From a virus: a stretch of 56,185 nt of DNA. Below the pieces are notes generated by a model, which had not been told where the DNA came from, searched no databases, and saw only the letters and a program-made list of their open reading frames with translations. Below are positions 7,055 to 56,185 of the stretch, one piece after another. Where the stretch lies: positions 1 to 56,185 of IMG/VR virus record IMGVR_UViG_3300048080_000167; one strand, written 5' to 3'. How positions within the stretch are numbered: the stretch's first letter is position 1; each line of letters begins with the position of its first letter. A program made the translations under genes and the position numbers.

Positions 7055-7296
7055 AGGTACTCGGCAACGGTGCTCTCACGCGCGTCGTCGTCGGCGTTAC
7101 GACCGCCGGCGTCTTGGGCGGTGTCGCGCTGTACGGCGAAGTCCGCGCGAACAGCGCCCGCACTACCGCTCTTGAGCACGCGACGGTCAGCACGCTCCAG
7201 AGCATCGAAGCGCTCCGCAGCAGCATGGACGAGCTACGCGAGCAGGTCGCCGAGAACAACGGCTACCTGCGCCGACTCGAAGAGCGCCGGCGCTAA
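7051..7296 (+). CDS. Small membrane-anchored coiled-coil protein
   Basis: GTGA overlap with the upstream stop. TRVVVGVTTAGVLGGVALY hydrophobic helix, followed by a heptad-like helical region. Confidence 0.5.
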   Translation: MKVLGNGALTRVVVGVTTAGVLGGVALYGEVRANSARTTALEHATVSTLQSIEALRSSMDELREQVAENNGYLRRLEERRR

Positions 7297-7523
7297 GGCT
7301 TCGCCTTGGCGCGCACCGCGACGAGACGGTGAACGCACTCGGCTAGCTGCCCGTCCTCGTGGAAGCGCTTGGCGAGATAGTCCTCGAGCGCGCGCTCGAC
7401 AACGCGTCGGAAGGGGATGCGTCTCGCGATCGCGTAACCGAGCGTCAGCCGGTGGAGCTGACGATCCAGGCGCACCGTGGTCGCCTGCGTCGGTTCGCGT
7501 CGGGGGCTCTCGACGTCGCTCAT
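7293..7523 (-). CDS. Ribbon-helix-helix (CopG/Arc-like) DNA-binding protein
   Basis: Start ATG has RBS ggagatcc. TTVRLDRQLHRLTLGYAIARRIPFRRVVERALEDYL fits a beta-strand plus two helices. The longer track ORF (to 7586) lacks an RBS. Confidence 0.6.
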   Translation of the reverse strand: MSDVESPRREPTQATTVRLDRQLHRLTLGYAIARRIPFRRVVERALEDYLAKRFHEDGQLAECVHRLVAVRAKAKP

Positions 7524-10037: not shown

Positions 10038-10118
10038 GTGGGCTCTCCTCTACGTCGGGCCCGGGATCGTAGACGATCGCCCCCGGAAAAGGGAAGCAGA
10101 ATCGCTCACCGGAGGGCC

Positions 10119-10148
10119 TAGACACCGGCCGTCGCTCGGGCGTAGACT
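10119..10148 (+). promoter_or_regulatory. Candidate sigma-70-type promoter (-35 TAGACA, 18-nt spacer, -10 TAGACT) for the replication/modification operon
   Basis: Lies in the 142-bp divergent intergenic region. The -10 fits TAnnnT. An RBS gggaggga and TTG 10180 follow about 30 nt downstream. Confidence 0.35.
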
Positions 10149-10179
10149 CTGCCCCGGCCGTCAGGGTGGGAGGGAAGCC

Positions 10180-11661
10180 TTGCCGCGACCGATCGCGCCG
10201 GAGCAGGCGCAGCGATGGATGCTGCGGCTCGCCGACTCCGTGCTGCTTTACCCCGGGCTCGAGGACGTCGCGCTACGCGCGGCCGTGCTCTTCCTCCGCA
10301 AGCGAGCCGAGATCGACGCCGAAGGGGGGTTGATGTTGACCGTCTCCGACGTGCTCTCCCTGCTCCGCAGAGACGGAGACGAGAGCGCGCGCGAGACTCA
10401 GGAGCGCTGGCAGGCTGCGCTCGGGTCGGGCCTACTCGTGCCGCTCCCGAGCCCCGAGCGAGCCACGACGGAGCCACGATCGAGCCACGACGGAGCCACG
10501 ACGGAGCTAGAACGAAGCCACGACCTGACCACGTTCAAGCCACGAGCGAGCATGCCCGGAGCACGCTCCTGGCATCGAGCAGGCCGGGCTCGGCTAGCTA
10601 TCCTATCGGAATTGCTCGAAACCGTCGGCCCTACGCGTACCGTCAAGCCGGAACACGTCGTCACCACTGTAGCTCTCTCCTCTTCTAGCCTTAGCAGGAG
10701 ACGGAGAGCGCAGAGGGTAAAGCCTTTGCAGGAGACTCCGGCTCCCTCTGCCTCTTCGTCTTCCTCTTCTAAGACGTCCGAAGAGCAGAGCAGAGCAGGA
10801 GAAGAGGGACCTACTACGACGAGAGCAGCCGAGCCGTCGGCGCCCGGGGCACGCGTAGGGGCACACGTAGGGACCGAAACGACGCCGCCGGCTCGAGAGC
10901 TCACCGACGAAGAGCGCGCGACCCTGGTGCCCCCCGAGTACGTCACGTCCGCGCTACCGGCTCGGGTCAACAAGCTCGTCAACTTCCTCGGCCAAGAGCC
11001 GGGCACTCGAGAAGTCAAAGCGGCGTGGCTCACCCGGGAGCTACCCAGGATCGAGGTGGCGGCGTTCCGGAAGCCGGGGGCCGAAGCGTCGCGCGCCAAG
11101 TTCAACGCGGCGGTCGCCGCCGAAACGCTCCAGTGGTGGCGGACCCACGTCAAGCGCCGGGGGCCGACCGTTTCGGCGGACGACGAAGGCGCGCGCCACG
11201 AGCGAGCCCGGGTCACGATGGACGAGGAGCTGGCCGACCTGAAGCGGACCGCTACCGCAGAGCAGGCCTCGGGAGAGCAGGCTCGAGCCTTCGCCAACTA
11301 CCGCCGGACGCACCCCAGGGTTACTCCGGCAGGAGAGGACCCGGACGTGCACAAGCGTCGGGCCGAGCAGCGCGGCGCCCCGGCGCGCCCTACGTCGCCG
11401 CCTGCGGCCCCAGCGTCGCAGCAGGAGCCACGAACGGCCCCGGCCCGAAGCTCGAGCCGGGGGCCCGTGCCGATCGGCGCCGTGGCGCCGGGCGTCGTCT
11501 CGGGCTTCCGGCGCCCCGAGTCTCCTGACGAGCCAGAGAGCCGGCCCCGGCAAGCGCCCCCGGCTCGGCCCATGCGCCCGGTGCCGAAGCCCGGGGCGCG
11601 CCCGACTCCCGAGCCCGAGCCCGAGCCCGAGGCTCCCTACGGCGACGAGGATGAACAGTGA
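10180..11661 (+). CDS. Putative replication initiator (lambda O-like organisation: N-terminal DNA-binding domain, iteron-containing low-complexity linker, C-terminal domain, Pro-rich tail)
   Basis: TTG 10180 is preceded by gggaggga (alternative start ATG 10219). Six AGCCACGA repeats and a lower-GC linker lie inside the CDS. The function is inferred from this architecture only. Confidence 0.4.
   Translation: MPRPIAPEQAQRWMLRLADSVLLYPGLEDVALRAAVLFLRKRAEIDAEGGLMLTVSDVLSLLRRDGDESARETQERWQAALGSGLLVPLPSPERATTEPRSSHDGATTELERSHDLTTFKPRASMPGARSWHRAGRARLAILSELLETVGPTRTVKPEHVVTTVALSSSSLSRRRRAQRVKPLQETPAPSASSSSSSKTSEEQSRAGEEGPTTTRAAEPSAPGARVGAHVGTETTPPARELTDEERATLVPPEYVTSALPARVNKLVNFLGQEPGTREVKAAWLTRELPRIEVAAFRKPGAEASRAKFNAAVAAETLQWWRTHVKRRGPTVSADDEGARHERARVTMDEELADLKRTATAEQASGEQARAFANYRRTHPRVTPAGEDPDVHKRRAEQRGAPARPTSPPAAPASQQEPRTAPARSSSRGPVPIGAVAPGVVSGFRRPESPDEPESRPRQAPPARPMRPVPKPGARPTPEPEPEPEAPYGDEDEQ
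10461..10545. repeat. Iteron-like array: six copies of AGCCACGA, the first four in 11-bp phase
   Basis: Copies start at 10461, 10472, 10483, 10494, 10516 and 10538. A degenerate ACCACG lies at 10528. Confidence 0.8.
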
Positions 11662-15694: not shown

Positions 15695-16032
15695 TGTGTC
15701 CTCCGGGCGCGCTCGCCCCAGACGCGGAGGCCGTAGGCGATCGCGTCGCGCTCTCGACGGAAAGGATCGGACGTCGCGAGCCCGAGCGCCGGCGTGCGGT
15801 ACGGCGAGCCCTCGACCTGCCAGAAGAGCCGGTAGCCGCGTTCCTCGGCTATGCCCGTCACGTTCACCACGACCAGATCGGCCGGGCAGGTCGCCGAACA
15901 GTAGCAGCCGCACGTCTCGAGCCACGAGACTTCGCCTTCCTCGTGGGGCCCCCGGCAGCCCTCGGGGCCGTGGAGCCGGGGCTCGTGGCAGCAGGCGACG
16001 CAGAGCACGGGCCGGGCGACTTCGGCGCTCAC
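15691..16032 (-). CDS. Cys-rich hypothetical protein
   Basis: 113 aa with CVACCH...C...CGCYCSATC. 4-nt overlaps at both ends. Confidence 0.55.
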   Translation of the reverse strand: MSAEVARPVLCVACCHEPRLHGPEGCRGPHEEGEVSWLETCGCYCSATCPADLVVVNVTGIAEERGYRLFWQVEGSPYRTPALGLATSDPFRRERDAIAYGLRVWGERARRTQ

Positions 16033-16271
16033 GCGTCCCTCCGGCGGTGCTCGGCCGGGCCATGCAGGTCGGGCGCTTCACAGTGCGCGCAGGCGCTCTC
16101 GGAGTCGCCGTGCGCGAAGACCAGCGAGCCGTACTCATTGAGCGCGGCGTCGAGCGCTTCGGCGACGTCGCCCTCCGTCGGTAGCTCCGTCAGGGGCCCG
16201 CCGACGAGCAGAGCGAGCAGGCGCGCCGAGATCCGGGCTCGAGCGTGCGAGAGCGTCGTGGGGAACGGCAT
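16029..16271 (-). CDS. Hypothetical small protein
   Basis: 80-aa ORF, tightly packed. High GC3. Confidence 0.5.
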   Translation of the reverse strand: MPFPTTLSHARARISARLLALLVGGPLTELPTEGDVAEALDAALNEYGSLVFAHGDSESACAHCEAPDLHGPAEHRRRDA

Positions 16272-16661: not shown

Positions 16662-16880
16662 CTACTCCTGCTCGCGCCGGGGGCCCACGGCGTGCTCGAG
16701 GCACCGGGCGCCCATCTCGCGCGTGACCACTCGGGGGAAAATCGGCTCCCCGCACGTTTCGCAGAGCCGGGCGCGTCGGCGCTCGAGGCGCGCGGCGTGC
16801 TCTGCCAGCGCGGTCTCCCGGGCGCGTCGGCGCTCTGCCTGCTCCACCAGCCTGTCGTTCATCGCCTTCGTCGTGCTCAT
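16662..16880 (-). CDS. Small protein starting MSTTK, degenerate TraR/DksA-like zinc-finger C-terminus
   Basis: The ATG lies inside the conserved leader element. CETCGEPI.P........RCLEH partly matches the C4 DksA/TraR finger. Confidence 0.55.
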   Translation of the reverse strand: MSTTKAMNDRLVEQAERRRARETALAEHAARLERRRARLCETCGEPIFPRVVTREMGARCLEHAVGPRREQE

Positions 16881-16947
16881 GCTCTTCTCTTCGGCAGCAT
16901 GCGCCCCGGAGTGAAGCTCCTCCACTCCGAGGCTCAGCTCCCGGCTA
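16881..16947 (-). promoter_or_regulatory. Conserved leader element, copy A (stop codon TAG through ATG)
   Basis: Minus-strand sense: GCTAGCCGGGAGCTGAGCCTCGGAGTGGAGGAGCTTCACTCCGGGGCGCATGCTGCCGAAGAGAAGAGCATG. Near-identical to copy E (38345..38416). Confidence 0.8.
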
Positions 16948-17190
16948 GCGCTCCTGCCGGGCCCGGGCGTCGGCCTCGACCGAGCCCTCGAAGTCCTCCG
17001 CGATCGCGGCGAGCTTCGCGTCGAGCCGGGCAAGGCTCGCGCCGAGCCAGGGGCGATCGGTCGGCGTCGCGCGCAGGTACTCCCGGAGCGTGCTCTGCGC
17101 GGCGACCAGGAAGCTGACGTCGAAAGCGTTGACGGCGTGCGAGACGGCGCGAGCTTCGTTCAGGTTCATCGCGTTCCCCTTCGTGCTCAT
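16945..17190 (-). CDS. Small protein starting MSTKGN
   Basis: The ATG is embedded in leader copy B. 81 aa. Confidence 0.55.
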   Translation of the reverse strand: MSTKGNAMNLNEARAVSHAVNAFDVSFLVAAQSTLREYLRATPTDRPWLGASLARLDAKLAAIAEDFEGSVEADARARQER

Positions 17191-17284
17191 GCTTTCTTCT
17201 CGGCAGCTTCCTGCCGGAAGTGAAGCCCCGCCACGCCGATGCGCAACTCCGGGCTCGAGCTCCGCGCCCCTATTAGCCCCACGT
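17191..17284 (-). promoter_or_regulatory. Conserved leader element, copy B
   Basis: Minus-strand sense: ...GAGCCCGGAGTTGCGCATCGGCGTGGCGGGGCTTCACTTCCGGCAGGAAGCTGCCGAGAAGAAAGCATG. Confidence 0.75.
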
Positions 17285-17665
17285 CTAGTCAATCTCTCTC
17301 CGGCTGAGATGGGGGGAACGCTCCCGGCCGCTCCTGCTCACGCAGCGATCGCCGGGGAAAGCCCGGCAGGTCGGGCACTGGCGCCAGCGCGCGCGCTTCG
17401 CCTCGGCGAGCCCGGCGCGCCTGCGCGCGAAGGCTTCCCGACGGGCCCGGGCGCGCGCGTCGCGTTCCGAGCGATCCTCGGCCGCGGGCACCGAGAAGAC
17501 GTGCGCGAGCAGATCGGGATAGAGCCGGCCCCGGCTCTCGGCCGAGCAGGTGAGGCAACGCTTGCACGTCTCCTGCCAGCGGTTCCCCTGCTCGTCGATC
17601 CCTTGCTCGGGGCGCTCGAGCGCGACGCGCGCCCAACGGTGGCGATGCGGGACGGCGACCGGCAT
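17285..17665 (-). CDS. Zinc-finger-containing hypothetical protein
   Basis: An internal ATG gives MPVAVPHRHRW... Motifs CKRCLTC and CPTC...C. The stop abuts leader copy B. Confidence 0.5.
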   Translation of the reverse strand: MPVAVPHRHRWARVALERPEQGIDEQGNRWQETCKRCLTCSAESRGRLYPDLLAHVFSVPAAEDRSERDARARARREAFARRRAGLAEAKRARWRQCPTCRAFPGDRCVSRSGRERSPHLSRREID

Positions 17666-17667
17666 GG

Positions 17668-17913
17668 CTACTCGGCCCGGGCGCCGGTCGGCACCGTGTT
17701 GTCGTCCTGCTCGTCGAAGCAGCAGCCTTCCGCGATCGACTCGAGCACGTCGCGCAGGAGCCCGCGTCCTCGCTTCATCCGACTCCAGCCGACCGGATAG
17801 CGCTCGGCGTAGGCCCGGAGCGCCTGCGCCAGCTTGCTTCGGAAGTCCTCGGGGGCCTCGTCGATGCACTCGAAGAGCGCCCACGCCAGCTCCTCTCGGG
17901 GGGTCATCGCCAT
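17668..17913 (-). CDS. Hypothetical acidic small protein
   Basis: 81-aa ORF; its stop (17668..17670) lies 2 nt upstream of the start codon of the next gene in the operon (ATG at 17665). Confidence 0.5.
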   Translation of the reverse strand: MAMTPREELAWALFECIDEAPEDFRSKLAQALRAYAERYPVGWSRMKRGRGLLRDVLESIAEGCCFDEQDDNTVPTGARAE

Positions 17914-17922
17914 CTTCGTCTC

Positions 17923-18147
17923 CTACCTGAGATCGCGCGCGACTCGGCGCGCCGTCTCGACCAGGGGGGTGTTGTCCAGCCCGAGCACGTCGGCCAGCGC
18001 CGCCTTGCCCACGAGCCAGAGCACCTTCGCTTCCGTCGGCGTCACCGGGTGGCCGGCGTCCGCGAGCGCGTCATGCAGCTCCCGGACTTCGCCGGCGACC
18101 TGCGCGTTGAAGGCATCCATCTTCATCTTCGTCGTCTTCGTGCTCAT
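17923..18147 (-). CDS. Small protein starting MSTKTTK
   Basis: The ATG is embedded in leader copy C. 74 aa. Confidence 0.55.
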   Translation of the reverse strand: MSTKTTKMKMDAFNAQVAGEVRELHDALADAGHPVTPTEAKVLWLVGKAALADVLGLDNTPLVETARRVARDLR

Positions 18148-18212
18148 GCTCTCTTCTCGGCAGCTCCGGGCAGGAAGTGAAGTGGCCCCACTCCGAGGCG
18201 CAACTCCGGGGG
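18148..18212 (-). promoter_or_regulatory. Conserved leader element, copy C
   Basis: Minus-strand sense: (TAG)CCCCCGGAGTTGCGCCTCGGAGTGGGGCCACTTCACTTCCTGCCCGGAGCTGCCGAGAAGAGAGCATG. Confidence 0.75.
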
Positions 18213-18485
18213 CTACGGCCCGGCCGGGCCGTTCCGGTAGCCGATCGCCCGGACCTGCACGTTGCGGCCGCCGGCCGTCTCGTGAAAGCTCGGGACCGTC
18301 GCCGTGTAGAAGATGACGGCGGCGCGCACGACGTCGCGCAGGTAGCACGGGACCACGGCGCAGATCGGCGCTCGCCAGTCCTCGGGGGTCGCGACCCGAT
18401 CGAAGGCATCCCTGAGACAGCTCTCGCAGTAGCGCTCCGTCGAGCACACGGGGGGATTCTCGCACTTGGGGACGGCGCAGGGCAC
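18213..18485 (-). CDS. Hypothetical protein with Cys-rich N-terminus
   Basis: 90 aa with CAVPKC...C....C..C. The stop TAG forms the 5' edge of leader copy C. Confidence 0.5.
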   Translation of the reverse strand: MPCAVPKCENPPVCSTERYCESCLRDAFDRVATPEDWRAPICAVVPCYLRDVVRAAVIFYTATVPSFHETAGGRNVQVRAIGYRNGPAGP

Positions 18486-18518: not shown

Positions 18519-18713
18519 TTAGGCTTCCAGGGTCGCGTCGGCGATCATCTCGCGGAGCACCGTCTCGAGCGTCGCGCGCTCGCGACCCGAGATCCGGCTC
18601 AGCAGTCGCGCGAAGCGCTCCTGCGCCTCGTCGGGCCGAGCGCGCAGGTTATCGGCTACCCAGCGCAGCTCGTCGTAGTCGCCGTCGGTCATCGTCTTCG
18701 TCTTCGTGCTCAT
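18519..18713 (-). CDS. Small protein starting MSTKTKT (first gene of the leftward early operon)
   Basis: Shares the CCGA(T)AAGAGAGCATGAGCACGAAGACG core with leader copies A-C and E. 64 aa. Confidence 0.55.
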   Translation of the reverse strand: MSTKTKTMTDGDYDELRWVADNLRARPDEAQERFARLLSRISGRERATLETVLREMIADATLEA

Positions 18714-18875
18714 GCTCTCTTATCGGAACGCTCGGCCGGAAACTTTAGCCCCCCCGCTCGCGGTAACGGTTTCCGCTTGTCCGACCGCAAAATGTGTCAC
18801 TTGCGTCTCGCCGAGCCCCTGCCGGCCCGCGCCGTCAGCTCCGGGCTGGCACGGCGCTTGCTTCTACTACGTGGC
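18714..18875. promoter_or_regulatory. Divergent early control region between the leftward (18713) and rightward (18876) operons
   Basis: 162 bp with no ORF. Contains a minus-strand TAAAGT -10-like hexamer (18742..18747), a 7-bp inverted repeat cggaaac/gtttccg (18737..18743 and 18769..18775), and a sigma-54-like site. Confidence 0.6.
18847..18862 (+). promoter_or_regulatory. Sigma-54-type -24/-12 promoter consensus (TGGCACGgcgcTTGCT)
   Basis: Full match to TGGCACG-N4-TTGCW. The GC of the -12 element lies about 15 nt upstream of ATG 18876. I found no second full match on either strand. Confidence 0.45.
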
Positions 18876-19127
18876 ATGAGCGAAAGCAAGCGACTGCCGA
18901 AGGGCTCCCGAGTTGCGATCCGCACCACGAATGGCGGCTTCGTCGTCGGCACGCTCTCGGCAGACTACGTGCCGACCTATCGCGTCGAGATCGACGAGGC
19001 GGCGCTGCCGATCCCGGCGGAGCGCTTGCTCGCCGTCGACCCGCTGCCCGACGCGCAGGCGCGCGCTCTCGTCGATCCCTGCTGGGCCGCCCTGCTCTCG
19101 GGCTACGCGCTCGCGACCGGGGCCTAA
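18876..19127 (+). CDS. Hypothetical small protein (first gene of the rightward operon)
   Basis: The ATG gives MSESKRLPKGSRVAIRTTNGGFVVG... High GC3. No clear SD, so the mRNA may be near-leaderless. Confidence 0.5.
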   Translation: MSESKRLPKGSRVAIRTTNGGFVVGTLSADYVPTYRVEIDEAALPIPAERLLAVDPLPDAQARALVDPCWAALLSGYALATGA

Positions 19128-19180
19128 AGCTTCGCGCCGATCCTGCCGAAGAGCAGGTTAGGCAAAGAGAGGAGACGAAA

Positions 19181-19273
19181 ATGGGACGCGCACTCGTGAT
19201 GCTGGGTTTCGGGCTCGGCTTCTACTTCGTGCTACTGCGCCCGATGCTGGCGCTCATCCCGGACGTCCAGTGA
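19181..19273 (+). CDS. 30-aa hydrophobic micro-protein (MGRALVMLGFGLGFYFVLLRPMLALIPDVQ)
   Basis: Strong RBS gagaggag, 7 nt, then ATG. One predicted membrane helix. The stop overlaps the next start (GTGA). Confidence 0.5.
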   Translation: MGRALVMLGFGLGFYFVLLRPMLALIPDVQ

Positions 19274-20656: not shown

Positions 20657-21002
20657 CGCTCATCGGCTCCGGCGAGCCGTCGTCGTCGTCGTGCTCATCC
20701 GTGACCACGCAGGGCCCGATCCTAGGCTCTTTCGGGCGGACTACGGGCTCGAGTGCGGGCATCGCTGCTCGGCCCGGGTCGGCCCGTCCGCCGCGCTTCC
20801 GGATAGTCTGCTCTGCCCCGACTGCCGGCCGATACGCAGCTCCACTCGGAAGCCGCCCCGGCCCGGCCGAGCTTCGCGCGCTCCTGTTCTCGAGAGCTTC
20901 ACTTCCGCAGCGTCAGCGCCGATAAGTGAAGCACGCGCTGGCTCCGGGGCCCGGAGGTCCCGAACCCCCGGAGCCGGCAGAGGAGAACACAATGGCTCAT
21001 GA
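20640..21002 (+). CDS. Hypothetical protein with zinc-ribbon-like C..H..C...C..C (uncertain 3' part)
   Basis: GC3 is high for the first ~75 codons. The tail runs through the hairpin/leader upstream of the DUF932 gene. Confidence 0.35.
   Translation: MPARSSAHRLRRAVVVVVLIRDHAGPDPRLFRADYGLECGHRCSARVGPSAALPDSLLCPDCRPIRSSTRKPPRPGRASRAPVLESFTSAASAPISEARAGSGARRSRTPGAGRGEHNGS
20897..20931 (+). promoter_or_regulatory. Hairpin CTTCACTT-N19-AAGTGAAG upstream of the DUF932 gene; shares the CTTCACTTCC core of the minus-strand leader elements
   Basis: 8-bp perfect inverted repeat, 60 nt upstream of ATG 20992. GAGAGCTTCACTTCCGCAG resembles GGAGCTTCACTCCGGGG of copies A and E. Confidence 0.4.
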
Positions 21003-22058: not shown

Positions 22059-22110
22059 TCTCGCCCCGAATGCGCTTCACCTCGAGCGCGCTCCGGCCGA
22101 TAGGGGACCC

Positions 22111-22440
22111 ATGCACGATCTCGAGCGAGCGCGTAGCGATGAGTGGCTCCGGTACGCCCGGCTGACGTGCGACGCCGAGGGCGTCTACTCCGTGCGGGCG
22201 CTTAGCTCCCACCCGCTCGGGCTCCTGCGCGAGGGTGGCGGGCTGCATGCGCTCCTACAGCAAGCGGTGGGGCAGGCGCCCCCGGGCTCTCTCGTCGAGT
22301 TGGCCCACGCGCTCGCGCTGGGGCAGCCGATCTCCTGGGGCTGCTGCGTGCGGCGAGACGATCGCGACCCGAGTTTCCGGGCCGAGCTAGCGCAGGCGCT
22401 CCTGAAGCTCTGCGAGGACGACGATGACGACCACGGTTGA
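22111..22440 (+). CDS. Hypothetical protein with acidic C-terminus
   Basis: 109 aa, ending CEDDDDDHG. ATG follows the gap. Confidence 0.5.
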   Translation: MHDLERARSDEWLRYARLTCDAEGVYSVRALSSHPLGLLREGGGLHALLQQAVGQAPPGSLVELAHALALGQPISWGCCVRRDDRDPSFRAELAQALLKLCEDDDDDHG

Positions 22441-22474
22441 CCACGCGCGCGACTCGAGCGCGCAGGAGAACAGC

Positions 22475-30047: not shown

Positions 30048-31530
30048 GCCCGAGATCCTGGCTCGTCTCCGGGGACGCTTCGGGCCCGGCGTCCCGCGCT
30101 CTCCGGCGGGGCGCTCGGCTGCCGTCGTCGAGCGCTGCCAGCTCGATCCCGCGTGGTTCTTCTCGACGATCCTCGGGGCTCATCCGTGGCCGGCGCAGGT
30201 CGCGATCGCCGAAAGCGTGCGCGACCACCGGCACACGGTGGTGCGATCCTGCAACGCCGCAGGCAAGAGCTACACCGCGGCTCGGATCGTCTGCTGGTGG
30301 CTCTTCAGCTTCGCCCCGGCGATCGCCGTCACCACAGCGACCACAGCTCGGCAGGTTCGGGGCATTCTCTGGAAAGAGATCAGGCTGGCCGCCGGTCGCT
30401 CGAAGCTCCCGCTGGGTGGTCGCGTGCTCACCCAACAGTGGCAGATCGCCGACGATCGTTTCGCGATCGGCTTCACGGCCCCCGAGTACGATCCCGAGCG
30501 CTTCTCGGGCTGGCACTCCGACCATGTGCTCGTCGTCATCGACGAAGCGTCGGGCGTCTCGCGCGAGATCCAGGAAGCATGCGACGCGCTCCTGTCGGGT
30601 GGGCATGCGCGAAAGCTCCAGATCGGCAACCCCGTCGATCCCACGAGCGCCTTCAGCGACGCGTTTAAGCAGCCGGAAGTCTCGAAGCTCCGGGTGAGCG
30701 CCTTCGAGACTCCTAACTTCACCACCTTCGGCATCACCGAAGGTCACATCCTCGACGGCTCCTGGTCGCGTCGGATCGCGGAGCCCCTGCCCTATCCGAC
30801 GCTGGTGACGCCGGAGTGGGTCGCCGACGTCTACGGGCGCTATGGCCGAGACAACCCCTACTGCGCCGCACGCGTGCGCGCCGAGTTTCCCACCTATGCC
30901 ACGAATCAGCTCATCCCGCTCGAGTGGATCGAAGCGGCGATGACTCGCACGCTCGAGCCGGGCTCGCCGATCGACGTGGCATGCGACCCGGCCCGGCTCG
31001 GCCCCGACGAAGCGATCATCTACACGCGCCGGGGCCCCGTGCTTCGCGAGAGCTGGTCGGCCCGGAGCTGCACGCTCACCCAGGTAGTCGGCGAGTGCAT
31101 CCGGGCCCTGCGCGTCACCGGAGCGCGGACGCTCAAGATCGACGAGGACGGGCTCGGCTCGGGTGTCGTCGATCGCTGCCGGGAGATTCTGGAGCACAGC
31201 GCCGTGACCGTGCTCGGGCTCCGTGGCGGCCTGCCCCCTCGAGAGCCGGAGCGCTATTTCAACTCGCGCGCCGAGTGGTACTGGGGCCTCCGCGACCGGC
31301 TCGAGGCCGGCACCATCGACCTGCCCCCGGACGATCACCGGCTCGCCGCTCAGCTCGCGGCCATCCGGATCGACCCGAAGGACAGCAGGGGTCGCCTCAA
31401 GCTAGAGTCGAAAGACGAGATGACCAGGGTGCGGAGACTCGAGAGCCCCGACCGGGCCGACGCGGCGGCGATGGCGTTCGCCGCAGAGCAGCAAGTCGGG
31501 GGCACGCTTGGGCCCGTCCGGCTCTGGTAG
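30037..31530 (+). CDS. terL: Terminase large subunit
   Basis: Walker A-like CNAAGKSYT. Walker B HVLVVIDEASGV. C-terminal nuclease-like region with acidic residues (IDEDGLGSGVVD). 497 aa. Confidence 0.85.
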   Translation: MTSEPEILARLRGRFGPGVPRSPAGRSAAVVERCQLDPAWFFSTILGAHPWPAQVAIAESVRDHRHTVVRSCNAAGKSYTAARIVCWWLFSFAPAIAVTTATTARQVRGILWKEIRLAAGRSKLPLGGRVLTQQWQIADDRFAIGFTAPEYDPERFSGWHSDHVLVVIDEASGVSREIQEACDALLSGGHARKLQIGNPVDPTSAFSDAFKQPEVSKLRVSAFETPNFTTFGITEGHILDGSWSRRIAEPLPYPTLVTPEWVADVYGRYGRDNPYCAARVRAEFPTYATNQLIPLEWIEAAMTRTLEPGSPIDVACDPARLGPDEAIIYTRRGPVLRESWSARSCTLTQVVGECIRALRVTGARTLKIDEDGLGSGVVDRCREILEHSAVTVLGLRGGLPPREPERYFNSRAEWYWGLRDRLEAGTIDLPPDDHRLAAQLAAIRIDPKDSRGRLKLESKDEMTRVRRLESPDRADAAAMAFAAEQQVGGTLGPVRLW

Positions 31531-31537
31531 GAGATCC

Positions 31538-32080
31538 ATGAGCGACGTCGACCACTCTCAGGAGATCACGCTCTGTCTCTACTATCGCGACGCCGAGCTG
31601 CACGGCGCGCGCCTGCTCTTTCACCTGCTCCGTCGCTTCGACGATCCCGAAGCTCAGGAGCTACTGACCGAGCACGTCGCCGACGAGACGCGCCACGCGT
31701 GGCTCTGGACCGAGCGCGCGCTCGAGCTGGGCGGTCAGGTCGCTCCTGTGTTCGACGGCTACCAGATTCGCATCGGGAAGCGCGTGGGTGTCGTGCGCGA
31801 TCTCGTCGACCTGCTCGCGCTCACCACGATCGTCGAGCAGCGCTCGCTTCGGCGCTATGCCGACCACCTAGGGCGCCGGGGCGTGCCCGAGCGCACGAGG
31901 GCCATTCTCCGCGAAGTCGTCCACGACGAAGGCTGGCACATCGAATGGGTGCGACGGAAGGGGCGCGCGCTCGACGTCGAGCGCTTCGATCTGGCGCTGG
32001 CTCGTTTCGCCGTCGTCGACGCGACCGTCACGGCCGAGCTAGCCGAGCGCGAGCAGGCGCTCATGAAACCGCTGGCGTGA
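31538..32080 (+). CDS. Ferritin-like di-iron-carboxylate protein (E...ExxH...E...ExxH)
   Basis: RBS aggag followed by ATG 31538. Ligand pattern: DAELHG, ADETRHAW, IVEQRSL, HDEGWHIEW. The family within the ferritin-like superfamily is not resolved. Confidence 0.6.
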   Translation: MSDVDHSQEITLCLYYRDAELHGARLLFHLLRRFDDPEAQELLTEHVADETRHAWLWTERALELGGQVAPVFDGYQIRIGKRVGVVRDLVDLLALTTIVEQRSLRRYADHLGRRGVPERTRAILREVVHDEGWHIEWVRRKGRALDVERFDLALARFAVVDATVTAELAEREQALMKPLA

Positions 32081-32357: not shown

Positions 32358-32642
32358 GTGGACGCGAGCGGGCTGAAGAGGAAGACGCGACGCTGGACAG
32401 AGCAGGAACGCGCGGAGATCCGGCAAGCGCTCGCCGACGCGCTCGAGGGCGTGCTCTGCTATGACGTCGCGCTCTCGGCTCATCTCGCGATCGCGTCGGC
32501 TTCGGACTCGCACGACGCCGACGTAGCGCTGGCCTATTCCCAGATGCTCTCGCCAACGTCGCTCATCGCGGCCGTCTCCTGCTCGCTCGTGGCTTCGAGA
32601 GAAGCGCTCGAGCGCGCGATCCGAAACGAAGAGCAGACATGA
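32358..32642 (+). CDS. Hypothetical small protein
   Basis: RBS ggagagga followed by GTG. 94 aa. Confidence 0.5.
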   Translation: MDASGLKRKTRRWTEQERAEIRQALADALEGVLCYDVALSAHLAIASASDSHDADVALAYSQMLSPTSLIAAVSCSLVASREALERAIRNEEQT

Positions 32643-35822: not shown

Positions 35823-38123
35823 GTGACGTTCGGCGAGCGAGTCCGTAGCCTCGTGCCCGTAAAGGTGGAGCGCCCGGACGCGGCGGTGCTCGCCTTGCTC
35901 TCTGAGCTCACCCAGGCTGGGGGGCTCCCGGCCGGCATGAAGCAGCTCACCCTGCCCGGCCGGGGCGGCACGTTCCTGCTGTCCTTCAACCGGACGGGCA
36001 CTACCGTCAACCGAGGCACCGAACAGCTCCTCCGGGCCTATGCGAGCCAGCCGTGGCTCCGGGGGATCGAAAGCAAGGTGGCCCGGGGCGTCGCGTCGAC
36101 GCCGTGGCAGGTGTTCGCCGTGAAGGGGGAGCCGGCGACCGATCCGCGCCGGCTGCGGTCGCTCAAGCAGCGGTTCCTGCTCTCGGGGCCGGCGACGCGC
36201 GCCGGGCTCGTGCGGGGGCTCGCGAAGCAGGGCGTCCTCGAGCCCCTGGACACTTCACCTCTGCTCGACTTTCTCGGGCGCGGGAATCCCTACCACCCCG
36301 GGCTCCTGACGATGCAGCTCACCCAGACGCATCTGGATCTCGTCGGCGAAGCCTTCTGGCTGATCGAACGCGATCAGCGCGGCCAGCCGCTCTTCTACTG
36401 GAACCTGCCCCCGTCGTGGGTGCGATCGACGCCGCTACCGGGCGATCCCGTGCCGACCTTCCGCGTGCGCTTCGACGGGCCCGAGGTGCCGATCCCGGCG
36501 AGCGAGATCATCTGGTATCAGGACCCCGATCCGCTCCAGCCCTACGGCCGGGGCACGGGCTTGGCGAAGGCTCTCGGCGACGAGTTGGACACCGACGAGT
36601 TCGCCGCCAAGTACCTGCGCCAGTGGTTCCTGAACGATGCCATCCCGCCGGTGATCGTCTCCGGAGACGGGCTCCAGCCGCAGGAAACGGCCCGGCTCGA
36701 GAGCGACTGGACGTCGAGGAATCAGGGATTCTGGCAGCGCTTCAAGCCGTACTTCATGAGCCGTAAGGTCGAAGTCACGAAGCTGGCCGCGAGCTTCGCC
36801 GAGATGCAGGTGGTCGACCTGCGAAAGAATCAGCGGGACACCGTCATGCAGGTGTACGGCGTGCCCCCGGAAGTCTTCGGCATTCTCGAGAACAGCAACC
36901 GAGCGACGATCGAAAGCGCCGACTTCCTGATGGCGCGCTGGGTTCTCGTGCCCCGGCTGGAGCTACTGCGCGCGACGGCGCAGCACCGGCTCGTGCCGAT
37001 GTTCGGCGACAACCTGCTGCTCGACTACGTCTCGCCGGTCGCCGAGGACAAGGAGTTCACGCTCAAGGTCATGCAGGCGGCGAGCTGGGCCTTCACCGCC
37101 GACGAGTGGCGCGCGCTCGCCGGGCGCGACGAGCTACCGGGAGACGGAGCGATCCATCTGGTGCCCTTCAACCTGCTCGGCGTCAAGCGGCTATCCGACC
37201 TGATCGCCGACCCGGCCGACGAGCGCGAGCCGGAGCCCGAGCCGGAGCCGACGCCCGAGCCGGACGACGAGGACGAGCCGGAGGACGAGCCCGAGGACGA
37301 AGAGGACGACGAGAAGAGCCGGCGGCTGGCGCTCCCGGCCCCGGACCGGAAGCAGGATGACCTGACCGGGGAGCAGGCCGAGCTGGTGCGGAGGACGCTC
37401 GCTGCGATCAAGTCGCGGCTGCTCGAAGAGCAGGTCGAGCCGGTCGCCGCGGGCACGCTCGAGGATTTCGGCAACCGGGCCGTGCGCGACGCGCTCGGGC
37501 AGGCCGCGGACTTCGACCTGAGCGATCCCCGGGTGGTCGACTACCTCAAGAATCGCACCAGCGACAAGATCCGGGGGGCGACTCGGACCACGCAGCGGCA
37601 GGTAGCGCGCGCTCTCGCGGCCGGCTTCGCCGAAGGCGAGAGCATCGACCGGCTCTCGCAGCGCGTGCGAGCCGTCTTCCGGGTCGCCAGCGCCGTGCGC
37701 GCGCACACCATCGCCAGGACCGAGACGGTGCGCGCCGCCAACTTCGGCACGCTCGAGGGCTCCCGGCAGGCGGGCGCGACGGGCAAGGAATGGGTAGCCG
37801 TGCGCGACGAGCGCACGCGGGACGCGCACCAGTCGCTCGACGGCACCGTGGTCGGGATCGACGAGGACTTCGTGAGCGAGAACGGGGGCTCTGGCCCCCA
37901 CCCGGGCGAGATGGACGAAGCGAGCGACGACATTCAGTGCCGGTGCACGACCACCTCCGTGTTCGGCGAAGCGAGCGCGAGCGCCCGGACGGCCGACGTC
38001 CGGGCGGCGATCTGGGCGGCCTTCGAGCAGGAGCGCGCGCCCTGGGAGCGCCTGCATCTGGCGGCGACGCGCCGGGGGCTCTCGGCGCAGAGCGCCGCGG
38101 CCGTGTCGGCTCTCCGGGGCTAG
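35823..38123 (+). CDS. Portal protein fused through an acidic Pro/Glu linker to a MuF / SPP1 gp7-like head-morphogenesis domain
   Basis: RBS ggggag followed by GTG 35823. Portal-like AYASQPWLRGIESKVARGVASTPWQVF... Linker EREPEPEPEPTPEPDDEDEPEDEPEDEEDDEK at about 37215..37320. MuF-like ...RAHTIARTETVRAANFG...WVAVRDERTRDAHQSLDG....F......PGE....C.RC. Confidence 0.8.
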   Translation: MTFGERVRSLVPVKVERPDAAVLALLSELTQAGGLPAGMKQLTLPGRGGTFLLSFNRTGTTVNRGTEQLLRAYASQPWLRGIESKVARGVASTPWQVFAVKGEPATDPRRLRSLKQRFLLSGPATRAGLVRGLAKQGVLEPLDTSPLLDFLGRGNPYHPGLLTMQLTQTHLDLVGEAFWLIERDQRGQPLFYWNLPPSWVRSTPLPGDPVPTFRVRFDGPEVPIPASEIIWYQDPDPLQPYGRGTGLAKALGDELDTDEFAAKYLRQWFLNDAIPPVIVSGDGLQPQETARLESDWTSRNQGFWQRFKPYFMSRKVEVTKLAASFAEMQVVDLRKNQRDTVMQVYGVPPEVFGILENSNRATIESADFLMARWVLVPRLELLRATAQHRLVPMFGDNLLLDYVSPVAEDKEFTLKVMQAASWAFTADEWRALAGRDELPGDGAIHLVPFNLLGVKRLSDLIADPADEREPEPEPEPTPEPDDEDEPEDEPEDEEDDEKSRRLALPAPDRKQDDLTGEQAELVRRTLAAIKSRLLEEQVEPVAAGTLEDFGNRAVRDALGQAADFDLSDPRVVDYLKNRTSDKIRGATRTTQRQVARALAAGFAEGESIDRLSQRVRAVFRVASAVRAHTIARTETVRAANFGTLEGSRQAGATGKEWVAVRDERTRDAHQSLDGTVVGIDEDFVSENGGSGPHPGEMDEASDDIQCRCTTTSVFGEASASARTADVRAAIWAAFEQERAPWERLHLAATRRGLSAQSAAAVSALRG

Positions 38124-38344
38124 ACCTTGAAGCGCGCCGACCGATTCTCGACTTCGAGCCGGATCGCTTCTCGGCATCGCGTCTCGCAGGTATCGAAGCC
38201 TAGATAGCTCCCGAACCCCGGCCGGTAGTTTCCGCCTGCGAAGCGCCAGGGGACGTAGATCACCCAGCCGCCGTTCGCCTGCTCCTCGAGAATCGCGAGG
38301 CCGTAGGGCGTTTCGATGCGCTTCGTCGCCTTCGTCGTGCTCAT
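38120..38344 (-). CDS. Opposite-strand small gene (moron) starting MSTTKATK
   Basis: The only minus-strand gene in the late region. Its start and 5' leader are near-identical to early-operon leader copy A. Confidence 0.6.
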   Translation of the reverse strand: MSTTKATKRIETPYGLAILEEQANGGWVIYVPWRFAGGNYRPGFGSYLGFDTCETRCREAIRLEVENRSARFKV

Positions 38345-38416
38345 GCTCTTCTCTTCGGCAGCATGCGCCCCCGGAGTGAAGCTCCTCCACCCCGGTGCGC
38401 AGCTCCGGGGCTAGCC
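38345..38416 (-). promoter_or_regulatory. Conserved leader element, copy E
   Basis: Minus-strand sense: GCTAGCCCCGGAGCTGCGCACCGGGGTGGAGGAGCTTCACTCCGGGGGCGCATGCTGCCGAAGAGAAGAGCATG. Confidence 0.8.
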
Positions 38417-45593: not shown

Positions 45594-45956
45594 ATGGCTC
45601 TGCTTGCGGTCACCGAAGTCTCCGAGGCCGCTGCGGGCGTCGATCTCGACGCCGTCGACGTCGCCGCGAATGCAGGCGGGGACTCCTACCCGAACGACGA
45701 CGACACCTTCCTCTACATCAACAATCAGGACGCGTCGCCGAAGACGGTCACGATCACCGCTCAGCGCACGGCCGTCCGCAAGGAAGGGTTCGGGGAGCTG
45801 ACCATCGCGTCGATCGCCGTGGTGGTGCCGGCGACGTCGCGTCGGCTCATCAAGGTGCCCATCGGCTCCTACTCCGACGCCAGCGGACGCGTCCAGCTCA
45901 CCTACTCGGCCGTCACGTCGGTCACGGTCGCCGCCCTGCGCGCCAAGCGGCAGTAG
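45594..45956 (+). CDS. Paralogue 1 of a tandemly duplicated 118-120-aa protein
   Basis: MALLAVTEV...AGGDSYPNDDDTFLYINN....KTVTITAQRTAVRKEGFGELT...SGRVQLTYSAVTSVTVAALRAKRQ. Confidence 0.65.
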   Translation: MALLAVTEVSEAAAGVDLDAVDVAANAGGDSYPNDDDTFLYINNQDASPKTVTITAQRTAVRKEGFGELTIASIAVVVPATSRRLIKVPIGSYSDASGRVQLTYSAVTSVTVAALRAKRQ

Positions 45957-45975: not shown

Positions 45976-46332
45976 ATGGCCCTGCTCGCCGTCACCGAGA
46001 TCCGAGCGCTGGAGATCGACCCCGACGCCGTCGCCGTCGCGGCCGCGGCCGGGGGCGACTCCTACCCGAACGACGATGACACGATGTTCTACATCCGGAA
46101 CGCCGGCGGCGGCTCGCAGACGGTGACGATCGCCGTCCAGCGGACGGCCGTGCGGAAGGAAGGGTTCGGCGAGCTCACCCTGGCGGCGATCGCGATGGTG
46201 GTGGGAGCCGGCCTCCGGAAGCTGATCAAGGTCCCGAGCGGGGGCTACGCCGACGCCAGCGGCCGAGTGCAGGTCACGTACACCGGCGTGACGTCGGTGA
46301 CGGTCGCGGCGCTGCGCACGCAGCGGCAGTAG
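45976..46332 (+). CDS. Paralogue 2 of the tandem pair
   Basis: MALLAVTEI...AGGDSYPNDDDTMFYIRN....QTVTIAVQRTAVRKEGFGELT...SGRVQVTYTGVTSVTVAALRTQRQ. Confidence 0.65.
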   Translation: MALLAVTEIRALEIDPDAVAVAAAAGGDSYPNDDDTMFYIRNAGGGSQTVTIAVQRTAVRKEGFGELTLAAIAMVVGAGLRKLIKVPSGGYADASGRVQVTYTGVTSVTVAALRTQRQ

Positions 46333-55940: not shown

Positions 55941-56185
55941 ATGCCGAGTGGCAATCACCTGAATCTCGACGCGATGACCGCGGCGCAGGCCGACAAAGAA
56001 GTCACCCACAATGAGAACGTGAACGAGGTGCAGGGCGCGCTCTGCGACTTCACCAGCCAGTCCGTCGCCGGGGGCGCCACCGTCAACCTCGACAACGACA
56101 CCGTGCTCTATTCGACGCGCCTCGAGCTCACCGGGCTCCTGACCGCCAACATCGCCGTCGACCTGCCCGACCGGAAGCGCAAGCT
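55941..56185 (+). CDS. Tail fibre-like protein with DUF2793-type N-terminus, 5' part (continues at 128 after collapsing the overlap; stop at 716)
   Basis: RBS gggggagag followed by ATG. MPSGNHLNLDAMTAAQADKEVTHNENVNEV resembles the DUF2793 signature ..AQAQKEVTHNEAL.. Confidence 0.8.
   Translation, partial: MPSGNHLNLDAMTAAQADKEVTHNENVNEVQGALCDFTSQSVAGGATVNLDNDTVLYSTRLELTGLLTANIAVDLPDRKRK
56059..56185. repeat. Direct terminal repeat, copy 2 (identical to 1..127)
   Basis: Exact match to 1..127, base by base. Confidence 0.95.

Follow-up and report, generated by a model that had tools for sequence, protein, structure and literature searches.

Five small genes of one phage genome begin with the same stretch of DNA, and the question raised by this locus is what that stretch does. 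The window (the whole stretch of DNA analysed, 56,185 nucleotides) represents a 56-kb genome of 70% G+C with an HK97-family capsid and a portal-MuF fusion, for which no DNA-level similarity to cultured phages was found. A repeat of ~85 bases precedes the five genes as four full copies (A, B, C and E) and one core-only copy (D), all on the minus strand, and every copy terminates in an ATG and MST(T)K codons. This start-associated repeat is real and far beyond chance. The 13-mer AGCATGAGCACGA had five exact matches, on the minus strand only, and the ATG of each was a start codon (16880, 17190, 18147, 18713 and 38344); with up to two mismatches it had 14 matches vs 1.3 expected. The 35-nt upstream consensus gave 4 matches vs 0.00 in shuffles. 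These counts, far above shuffles, confirm the repeated leader element fused to MST(T)K starts that a first-pass annotation had described. A profile HMM and a covariance model run over the whole window found no additional full copy.

The conserved core consists of Box1 (TTCACTYC; TAAAGTTT in D), 12 nt, Box2 (GCCGAnrA), 6-7 nt and the ATG. The copies and the genes that they head were as follows.

16862..16947, minus strand: copy A, full, holding the TAG stop of the upstream 81-aa gene, CTGAGC and the left hairpin arm CGGAGTGGAG
16908-16915, minus strand: Box1 of copy A (TTCACTCC), then N12, Box2 (GCCGAAGA, 16888-16895), 7 nt and ATG 16880 (codons MSTTKA)
16662-16880, minus strand: gene of copy A, 72 aa, weakly DksA-like
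17172..17256, minus strand: copy B, full, with TTGCGC, Box1 (TTCACTTC, 17217-17224), N12, Box2 (GCCGAGAA, 17197-17204), 6 nt and ATG 17190 (MSTKGNAM...)
16945-17190, minus strand: gene of copy B, an 81-aa ORFan
18129..18215, minus strand: copy C, full, holding the TAG stop of a 90-aa gene, then TTGCGC
18174-18181, minus strand: Box1 of copy C (TTCACTTC), then N12, Box2 (GCCGAGAA, 18154-18161), 6 nt and ATG 18147 (MSTKTTKMKM...)
17923-18147, minus strand: gene of copy C, a 74-aa ORFan
18711..18747, minus strand: copy D, core only, with TAAAGTTT (18740-18747), N12, TCCGATAA (18720-18727), 6 nt and ATG 18713 (MSTKTKTM...)
18519-18713, minus strand: gene of copy D, the first leftward gene, 64 aa
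38326..38413, minus strand: copy E, full, with Box1 (TTCACTCC, 38373-38380), N13, Box2 (GCCGAAGA, 38352-38359), 7 nt and ATG 38344 (MSTTKATK...)
38120-38344, minus strand: gene of copy E, a lone antisense 74-aa ORFan with the portal-MuF gene and the next head gene on either side
38124..38414, minus strand: element and gene block of copy E, 291 nt, absent from the close relative described below

The full copies aligned colinearly with D, and the GCCGA of Box2 was invariant, 12 nt past Box1 (13 in E). In A, C and E the conserved stretch ran from the TAG stop of the upstream gene to codon 6-7, in agreement with the earlier proposal that it reaches from a stop codon into about six codons of the next gene. 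The encoded starts of copies A to E were MSTTKA, MSTKGN, MSTKTT, MSTKTK and MSTTKA. Also as proposed, the first gene of the operon keeps only the core: copy D lies in the divergent intergenic region ahead of it. The first-pass coordinates were about right, with the ATGs one base higher than a literal reading would place them and the conserved part of B starting at ~17256, not 17284; copy E, on which that annotation had also drawn, is real but lies outside the range that it had given. The five copies, in one orientation and with ATG starts, head unrelated proteins. Pfam gave no match for these proteins and PHROG almost none, and the protein of the E gene had zero homologues among 5.8 billion proteins. 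A second, unrelated 24-nt repeat (stop, Shine-Dalgarno, ATG, first codons) was found at two other genes.

All of the evidence derives from a single phage lineage, represented by this window together with one relative whose nucleotide identity to it is roughly 85-93%. The element is kept in this relative, the only close one found, whose copies are marked here with a prime. Orthologues of B and C were located (B', L313:680-775; C', L302:207-293, 95% identical to C), and the relative holds an extra copy, N; the TAG stop is part of A, C, E, C' and N. The 291-nt E block is flanked by a 12-nt direct repeat, CTCCGGGGCTAG (38112-38123 and 38403-38414), in which the CTAG is the stop codon shared by the portal gene and the E gene. 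Three replacement breakpoints relative to the other phage coincided with the element: one at 18742, between the boxes of D, one where N ends on its 3' side and one at the 5' edge of B. Copy D' is chimeric, with the Box1 of D and a Box2 half resembling A or B'. One of the five gain, loss or replacement events, the g9 insertion, was not at a copy. Together the element and its ORFan behave as a cassette. The E gene stands alone and antisense to the head operon, and would therefore need its own promoter. Short-read assemblies break at copy A because of the repeat.

The boxes also occur without the repeat. A relaxed two-box pattern had 10 matches in the window vs 0.20 ± 0.45 in 200 dinucleotide shuffles, and 8 of the 10 were intergenic and aimed at the next gene. 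Sites G, F and H have the boxes alone.

19125..19152, plus strand: site G, with TAAAGCTT, N12, GCCGAAGA and a 28-nt leader with a strong Shine-Dalgarno (GAGAGGAGACGAAA-ATG)
19181-19273, plus strand: gene of site G, a 30-aa hydrophobic peptide
20896..20933, plus strand: site F, with GCTTCACTTC, N12 and GCCGATAA (20918-20925); the ATG of a DUF932 gene (20992) lies 66 nt downstream, with the Shine-Dalgarno GAGGAG
22076..22113, plus strand: site H, with GCTTCACCTC, N12, GCCGATAG (22096-22103), 7 nt and ATG 22111 of a 109-aa gene

Site H has the geometry of A to E and different first codons (MHDL...). Site F lies inside a perfect 9-nt inverted repeat, GCTTCACTT-N19-AAGTGAAGC. The relative keeps the boxes at all three sites: its G has a different spacer (TAAAGTCG-N12-GCCGAAGA), its F has the boxes (TTCACTCC ... 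GCCGATAG) with the inverted repeat lost, and its H is almost identical.

The two boxes resemble a sigma-28 (FliA/WhiG/SigD-type) promoter, whose consensus is TAAAGTTT-n11-GCCGATAA (PMC2859248, PMC4183435). Copy D (TAAAGTTT-N12-TCCGATAA) carries 15/16 bases of that consensus, with 1 match vs 0 in shuffles. The -10 octamers were TCCGATAA at D, GCCGAAGA at A, E and G, GCCGAGAA at B and C, GCCGATAA at F and GCCGATAG at H, and the CGA core was kept in all. The -35 octamer TAAAGTTT was matched 8/8 at D and 7/8 at G (6/8 in the -10 at G), whereas A, B, C, E, F and H carry TTCACYYC, a 3-5/8 fit: six of the eight sites have TTCAC in place of TAAAG. The octamer spacer was 12 nt at seven sites and 13 at E, compared with the canonical 11; a 12-nt spacer has been reported functional in some sigma-28 promoters. 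At E. coli aer the transcript starts 6 bp past the -10 octamer, which matches the distance from octamer to ATG here (6-7 nt after Box2 in D, A, B, C, E and H). The aer promoter is crippled by mutation of the -30 A and the -28 G (PMC2859248), and the TTCAC of the full copies lacks both of these essential bases; the full copies would therefore depend on an activator or on a sigma factor of other specificity. A search of 46 non-structural phage proteins turned up no sigma-factor domain. The genes served here are those of a phage and not flagellar ones.

A different promoter had been suggested, with TTGCGC and TCACT as hexamers. Their spacing is indeed fixed (16 nt), but the first hexamer varies, becoming CTGAGC or CTGCGC in A, E and B', and is absent above the TTCAC box at F and H. 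TTCACT as a sigma-70 -10 hexamer is missing the A at position 2, and a sigma-70 scan of 14-21 kb found nothing. The core reads better as a two-box promoter than as an RNA leader or as these hexamers. The two-box unit, TTCAC/TAAAG-N12-GCCGA, is better conserved than the hexamers and would put most of the so-called leader upstream of the predicted transcript start.

Signals for translation differed between the two kinds of site. The anti-Shine-Dalgarno duplex of the five element genes was -3.1 to -6.2 kcal/mol vs a genome median of -7.3, whereas G (28-nt leader) and F (66-nt leader) have Shine-Dalgarno sequences of the GGAG type. This split, together with an ATG 6-7 nt past Box2, leads us to predict leaderless mRNAs at the element genes. 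Site H departs from this in having AGGGG 7 nt ahead of its ATG, and the purine run GAGAAGAG could still serve as a weak Shine-Dalgarno. The strict geometry is lost in A', where 9 nt (GCTGCCGAA) are duplicated in tandem and leave two Box2 sequences, one 12 nt from Box1 and 15 nt from the ATG, the other 6 nt from the ATG and 21 nt from Box1; such a duplication would be less at odds with a 5' leader that tolerates change than with a leaderless start. The cI mRNA of phage lambda transcribed from PRM is reportedly leaderless. The genes described here share with it a predicted start at the A of the AUG, strict use of AUG and no Shine-Dalgarno, but here the arrangement is a copied module, repeated at six genes and predicted only.

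We lean towards reading the repeat as a portable cassette for expression, composite in build, whose main action would be on DNA and not on RNA. Box1 would be GCTTCACYC (TAAAGTTT at the first gene of the operon), and Box2, 12 nt on, would be the sigma-28-type -10 octamer. Transcription would start at or next to the ATG and give each downstream small gene a leaderless mRNA or a leader of at most 2 nt. A leaderless launch would explain the strict ATG start and the missing usable Shine-Dalgarno; it would also explain why the start codon and the MST(T)K codons have to be part of the repeat, with captured genes being in-frame fusions behind that head. The upstream half (TTGCGC ... GGAGTGG) would be the left arm of an imperfect stem-loop that lies directly after the upstream stop and overlaps Box1; this stem-loop may attenuate or stabilise incoming upstream transcripts, or a regulator may bind there. 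With ~85 nt in common, the copies may double as recombination points at which ORFan genes are gained, lost and exchanged. We infer the promoter activity, the sigma factor, the transcript start and the role of the stem-loop from sequence.

Other explanations place the function in RNA or in a bound protein. One is a structured 5' leader or translational operator, in which the hairpin and a purine-rich initiation region would be bound by a phage or host factor or would sequester the AUG, co-regulating the translation of several early genes as proposed for SAS/ESAS. The element does lie directly 5' of the starts in one orientation, and conservation passes through the AUG. A hairpin around CTTCACTCC had been proposed for each copy: A and E gave strong folds (-40.2 kcal/mol, z -3.9, and -39.5 kcal/mol, z -2.4, respectively) and B a marginal one (z -2.0), but C, D, C' and N folded no better than shuffles. 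The sense strand folded better than the antisense strand in A (-40.2 vs -30.2 kcal/mol) and E (-39.5 vs -35.1), changes in E and B' turn A-U or G-U pairs into G-U or G-C, and the A' duplication would be easily tolerated. However, no statistical covariation was seen across 8 copies, four of them from the relative: one pair was changed on both sides in a compensatory manner, and 80.0% of cells paired vs 79.1% in shuffles, a value reached by 119/500 shuffles. The suggested pairing of the AUG with an upstream CAUGCU fared poorly, since the CAUGCU of A is buried in the long hairpin of the minimum-energy fold and A' has CACGCU, so that the pairing is lost. A leader also has to contend with Box1-N12-Box2 at G and F, 28-66 nt above starts with a strong Shine-Dalgarno of their own. 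Rfam 15 gave no match at the gathering threshold in the window, and 16.5-19 kb gave only chance-level matches elsewhere. The structured leader appears partly supported, and we consider it quite unlikely as the explanation of the repeat.

The stem-loop could instead mark an intercistronic site of RNA processing or stability, at which a double-strand-specific or other host RNase would cut, or 3' exonucleases or RNA polymerase would be blocked, splitting the early polycistronic RNA into stable units; such a site could coexist with a promoter, and the stem-loop half of the PeSLs described below offers a parallel. In the T7 early region, RNase III sites are imperfect hairpins in intergenic spaces, and imperfect hairpins likewise stand between genes of an early polycistronic operon here. 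The element begins at the upstream stop in A, C and E, and the upstream half is missing from D, at the first gene, which fits a processing model. An imperfect helix of ~22 bp, a length sufficient for RNase III, forms in A, A' and E. Only these three have it, however; half of the copies have disrupted middle pairs, and what is conserved, unlike in T7, is blocks of sequence and not structure. The stem is not followed by a U-tract, and a terminator scan at the stem-loops found nothing. Processing would leave the conservation of Box2 and of the coding region unexplained, and we give it little credence.

We regard as similarly improbable a repeated operator, in which a phage repressor or activator would recognise the inverted repeat GGAGTGG-N5-CTTCACTCC at several intergenic sites. 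The L5 stoperators and the conserved intergenic inverted repeats of Streptomyces phage phiC31 are analogues. GTG-N9-CAC was invariant in 8/8 copies (the four full copies of the window and the relative's four), CTTCACT was over-represented (9 matches vs 3.0 expected) and also forms the perfect inverted repeat at F, and HTH_3/HTH_31 and HTH_8 proteins are among the products of the phage. For the cluster K ESAS repeats, a role as protein sites was judged likelier than one as RNA hairpins (PMC3203893). Against an operator, the half-sites are 3-5 nt apart in the element vs 19 nt at F, the second arm at F is lost in the relative with the boxes kept, and B, B' and N preserve the left arm poorly. The genome yielded neither an integrase nor a clear repressor. 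The 13-bp L5 stoperator consensus GGTGGMTGTCAAG was not enriched in the window (3 matches vs 1.5 expected with 2 mismatches; none at the element), and Box2 and its fixed distance to the ATG would remain unexplained.

That the copies have no dedicated function, as recent duplications of one gene's 5' end spread by recombination and still undecayed, is very improbable: A and E are ~90% identical, E is a recent insertion and the 24-nt repeat indicates that start modules get copied in this genome, but B, C and N are only 70-80% identical to A and keep its blocks and spacing with the sequence between blocks diverged, orthologous copies are retained in the relative, and the boxes also occur without the repeat.

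For the portable promoter and start cassette that we favour, the closest analogues are the PeSL cassettes of T4-type phages and the SAS/ESAS of mycobacteriophages. PeSLs (promoter-early stem-loops) are mobile regulatory cassettes (Arbiol et al. 2010, PMC2839356; Comeau et al. 2014, PMC4122927), and recombination between their copies yields encapsidated mini-circles (PMC2839356, PMC4122927). They too are repeats of ~100 bp that begin at an upstream stop, take in a promoter whose boxes are overlapped by a stem-loop containing G-T pairs, and reach a downstream start; the PeSL stem-loop acts as terminator or attenuator. They lie mostly upstream of ORFans, with a few copies within virion modules, and ~95%-identical phages differ at them by indels or replacements of an ORFan and repeat as one cassette. 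The PeSL promoter, however, follows the sigma-70 consensus, whereas the boxes here are sigma-28-like. PeSLs have an AT-rich upstream region, absent here, and a Shine-Dalgarno before the start, whereas here the start codon stands at the predicted transcript start and conservation continues into the first 4-6 codons. PeSLs number ~50 copies in a T4-like myovirus genome; here 4-5 copies occur in an unrelated 56-kb, 70% G+C genome with an HK97-type capsid, and promoter function is predicted from sequence.

In the SAS and extended SAS of Cluster K mycobacteriophages, a 13-bp consensus, GGGATAGGAGCCC, precedes the start by 3-7 bp (Pope et al. 2011, PMC3203893). The first-pass annotation had noted a likeness to such elements with a different sequence, and as an analogy of layout this is fair. 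Each is a short, asymmetric repeat that keeps one orientation and stands a few nt from starts with a strong ATG preference, mostly at non-structural genes, the gene families behind it being unrelated. An imperfect inverted repeat, with no RNA-type covariation, lies just upstream of about half of the SAS sites, and in both systems the upstream stop codon is sometimes inside the repeat. SAS contains a canonical AGGAG and stops before the ATG, whereas the element is without a good Shine-Dalgarno and includes the ATG and first codons. The SAS consensus was not enriched in the window (4 matches vs 2.3 expected with 2 mismatches; none at the element).

A bolder extension of the cassette, which we put forward tentatively and think rather unlikely, is that the phage has two classes of early promoter sharing the sigma-28-type -10 octamer. 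The FliA-type class (TAAAG), at D and G, would tie infection to a motility or developmental sigma factor of the host. The phage-specific class, with a GCTTCAC -35, would possibly be read via a phage factor, in a sigma appropriation like that of T4 MotA/AsiA, and would drive ORFan cassettes as leaderless transcripts, each cassette bringing its own start codon and head peptide and being mobile by recombination at the repeat.

If the portable-cassette reading is true, the idea of the mobile regulatory cassette, so far sigma-70 and T4-like, would extend to an unrelated high-G+C phage, to another promoter class and to a cassette with a built-in start codon. It would add a case of phage early genes expressed from sigma-28-type promoters as leaderless mRNAs, and the repeat would mark sites of ORFan swapping. 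It would also give a testable reason for phage repeats that span a stop codon and the first codons of the next gene, and may help in interpreting SAS/ESAS.

The repeat noted in the first-pass annotation was confirmed: AGCATGAGCACGA occurs exactly five times, always on the minus strand, and every ATG opens an ORF. For the upstream half, a 35-nt consensus gave four matches in the window and none in shuffled sequence. Four copies are full and one retains the downstream half only:

16862-16947, minus strand: copy A, full
17172-17256, minus strand: copy B, full
18129-18215, minus strand: copy C, full
38326-38413, minus strand: copy E, full
18711-18747, minus strand: copy D, downstream half only, ahead of the first leftward gene

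Genes of the phage lie almost entirely on the plus strand, apart mainly from a leftward block, 18713 to ~15470, which diverges from rightward genes starting at 18876. Proteins encoded behind the copies are short (64-81 aa), mutually unrelated, and orphans except for a weak DksA-like zinc-finger match behind A. Neither a profile HMM nor a covariance model found further copies in the window.

Comparison with a close relative was possible at ~85-93% nucleotide identity. A 95%-identical homologue of the DUF932 protein lies on contigs L302 and L303 of this relative; L313 was reached via a 90% protein cluster, and L056 is an IMG/VR contig whose portal is 93% identical. Together the four cover the early region of the relative and its portal end; all comparisons are within one phage lineage. 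The relative carries orthologues of A to D (A', B', C' and D'). Its extra full copy, N, precedes the homologue of a 90-aa window gene (18213-18485) that has no copy in the window.

Copy D reads TAAAGTTT-N12-TCCGATAA-GAGAGC-ATG; the sigma-28 consensus is TAAAGTTT-n11-GCCGATAA (PMC2859248). The combined sigma-28 pattern was found once in the window and never in shuffled sequence. Each box of D has its counterpart in the aligned full copies, which read TTCACT[CT]C (Box1), N12 (13 in E), GCCGA[AG][GA]A (Box2), 6-7 nt and ATG. A relaxed box-pair pattern matched 10 sites against 0.20 expected, and eight of these are intergenic and directed at the next gene: D, A, B, C and E, together with three sites from which the rest of the repeat is absent:

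19125-19152, plus strand: site G, TAAAGCTT ... GCCGAAGA
20898-20925, plus strand: site F, TTCACTTC ... GCCGATAA
22076-22103, plus strand: site H, TTCACCTC ... GCCGATAG

The boxes at G, F and H are kept in the relative, while the spacer of G differs and the inverted repeat flanking F is lost. Kept boxes in changing surroundings are the usual mode of promoter evolution. At F, upstream of the DUF932 gene, this perfect 9-nt inverted repeat, GCTTCACTT-N19-AAGTGAAGC, brackets Box2 (20896-20933, plus strand); its second arm is the part not kept (L302:3160-3200).

Other promoter and site types fitted poorly. An integron attC core (GTTRRRY) has neither an inverse core nor an integrase, the GG-N10-GC spacing is wrong for sigma-54, and a CRP-like TGTGA-N6-TCACA is off by one in spacing, all as judged by eye. 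A scan for sigma-70 promoters returned no site. The -35 candidate TTGCGC proposed earlier was not supported: A, E and B' have CTG... in its place, and F, G, H and D lack it. Remaining CTTCACT sites (23560, 50030 and 50132) fall within coding sequence and seem to be chance occurrences, a start-region look-alike at 32639 is weak and has neither box, and weak covariance-model matches at 22442 and 20679 are not copies. The TTCAC box of the full copies differs from the sigma-28 -35 octamer at positions important in E. coli. Judging from sequence, we lean slightly towards reading the element as a promoter cassette.

Transcription from the E. coli aer promoter begins 6 bp downstream of the -10 octamer. 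Box2 lies 6 nt from the ATG in D, B and C and 7 nt in A, E, N and H, which places the predicted start on the A of the ATG or 1-2 nt upstream. Anti-Shine-Dalgarno duplexes are weak in the five element genes, at -3.1 to -6.2 kcal/mol; the median of 69 other genes is -7.3. Sites G and F, where a 28- or 66-nt leader follows Box2, have strong GGAG-type sites. In A', the leaderless geometry is upset by a duplication of 9 nt. Leaderless initiation, as suggested by these distances, is somewhat less certain than the promoter-cassette reading. We propose that the start codon and first codons lie inside the repeat because the promoter must start on its own ATG. A second in-frame Met is present 7-10 residues into the products of B, C and D and is kept in B' and C'; A' has Thr in place of the second Met of A, and E lacks a second Met. 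The second Met in B, C and D could be explained by a promoter starting on its own ATG, as would be seen if the start of an already existing gene had been taken up behind the head. Elsewhere, the gene called at 22424 more likely starts at ATG 22475 (plus strand), behind the Shine-Dalgarno sequence GGAGAA; its product would begin MTKSKSKATK, a Lys/Ser/Thr-rich N-terminus resembling the MSTK heads.

Several of the differences between the two phages lie at the copies. In L056 the portal stop codon runs directly into sequence that lies beyond element E in the window; 38124-38414, comprising element E and a 74-aa ORFan, is thus a 291-nt indel. This block is flanked by a 12-nt direct repeat, CTCCGGGGCTAG, the reverse complement of which is the 5' end of the element. 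Because the E gene runs antisense to the head operon, it requires a promoter of its own. Within the leftward block, where the window has its first gene, the relative instead carries a different 180-aa gene together with copy N. This replacement has its left breakpoint at 18742, between the boxes of D, and its right one just past the ATG of N; D' joins Box1 of D to a Box2 half resembling A or B'. The 126-aa gene has its 3' half replaced, and this replacement stops precisely at the 5' edge of B. One indel lies away from any copy, a 494-nt insertion (L313:1635-2128 vs window ~16258-16270) at the 5' end of an 80-aa gene (16029-16271) whose homologue in the relative has 249 aa. A Logan contig of the same phage ends at copy A, presumably because A and E are near-identical.

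The hairpin proposed for each copy in the first-pass annotation was strong in A and E: both form an imperfect ~22-bp hairpin of -40 kcal/mol (z -3.9 and -2.4) that is more stable in the sense than in the antisense strand. For C, C', N and D, the folds do not surpass those of shuffled sequence. Covariation gave no support to conserved pairing, with 80.0% of cells paired in an eight-copy alignment vs 79.1% in column shuffles and compensatory change in one pair only. The suggested pairing of CAUGCU with the AUG is broken in A', which reads CACGCU, and Rfam gave no match supporting an RNA family. Conserved RNA structure was set aside, its support being weak apart from the A and E folds and covariation giving none. 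The invariant features are blocks of sequence set at constant distances, in the order G[TC]TG[CA]GC, C.G.GTGG, CTTCACT, GCTGCCGA, a purine run and GCATGA. The stem-loop may well play an additional part at the level of RNA.

Beyond the close relative, searches for the element were negative. The covariance model found no copies in ~0.5 Mb of distantly related phage loci, the profile HMM gave chance-level matches only across all 2.8 Mb of fetched loci, and exact patterns in IMG/VR, GTDB genomes and JGI metagenomes recovered only chance matches inside unrelated coding sequence. Neither the DUF932 neighbours (25-44% identity) nor a portal match at 43% showed a copy or an equivalent repeat. Exact look-ups of the DUF932 and E-gene proteins gave no match, and the E-gene protein has no homologue. 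Different repeats were seen at two loci: in an unrelated IMG/VR phage (L004:2124-14113), a 30-nt motif with the palindrome GCGTGACAGCTGTCACGG is present in 4 copies over 12 kb and looks like repeated operators. At L304:1-12436 (JGI 3300023214; DUF932 44% identical), many copies of a 9-nt-periodic, CTTCCGGGG-like repeat and ~10 copies of a 75-nt sequence starting near ATGAGAGCCGTTAGAGCAGCC together suggest a family of repetitive small genes. The window itself contains a second, unrelated start module, an exact 24-nt TAGGAGATCCATGAGCGACGTCGA at 7500-7523 (minus strand) and 31528-31551 (plus strand). It comprises a stop codon, a Shine-Dalgarno sequence and ATG plus four codons (MSDV), and stands at the start of two genes that lie on opposite strands and are otherwise dissimilar, 7293-7523 (minus) and 31538-32080 (plus), coordinates being approximate, from alignment.

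The window is a complete phage genome of 70% G+C. An exact 127-nt terminal direct repeat (1-127 = 56059-56185) was observed, and the genome is complete as a circular or terminally redundant molecule of ~56,058 bp. Encoded proteins include an HK97-family capsid, a portal-MuF fusion, terminase, a C5 methylase, a DUF932 protein and a Mu Gam-like protein. No GenBank phage showed DNA similarity to the window. Similarities at the protein level, those of capsid, terminase and portal included, are distant, span mixed taxa and point to no particular host. A gene-poor stretch of ~1.6 kb (10038-11657) has no convincing ORF. Within it, about eight tandem 11-nt units (CGAGCCACGAC-like) at 10437-10524 adjoin the leftward 384-aa and Gam-like genes and may be an origin/iteron or attachment region. 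Tail-region genes 45594-45956 and 45976-46332 (plus strand) are adjacent tandem paralogues with ~80% nucleotide identity over ~330 nt.

A close likeness is to the PeSL cassettes of T4-type phages, which extend from a stop codon to a start codon and include a promoter and a stem-loop containing G-T pairs, lie upstream of ORFans and mark indels between ~96%-identical phages (PMC2839356, PMC4122927). The element agrees with PeSL closely in anatomy and behaviour. It differs in a predicted promoter unlike that of sigma-70, in belonging to an unrelated phage and in having the start codon inside the cassette. The likeness noted earlier to the SAS/ESAS of cluster K mycobacteriophages extends to layout but not to sequence or Shine-Dalgarno content. 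L5 stoperators are not present in the window. A literature search found no paper on sigma-28-type phage early promoters, a result that argues only weakly for their absence. Among 46 non-structural proteins of the phage, none had a sigma-factor domain. The gene behind A (16662-16880, minus strand) weakly matches DksA-like zinc-finger proteins (PHROG 54, E 2e-4). DksA/TraR-type proteins target RNA polymerase, and this gene may bear on promoter usage by the phage.
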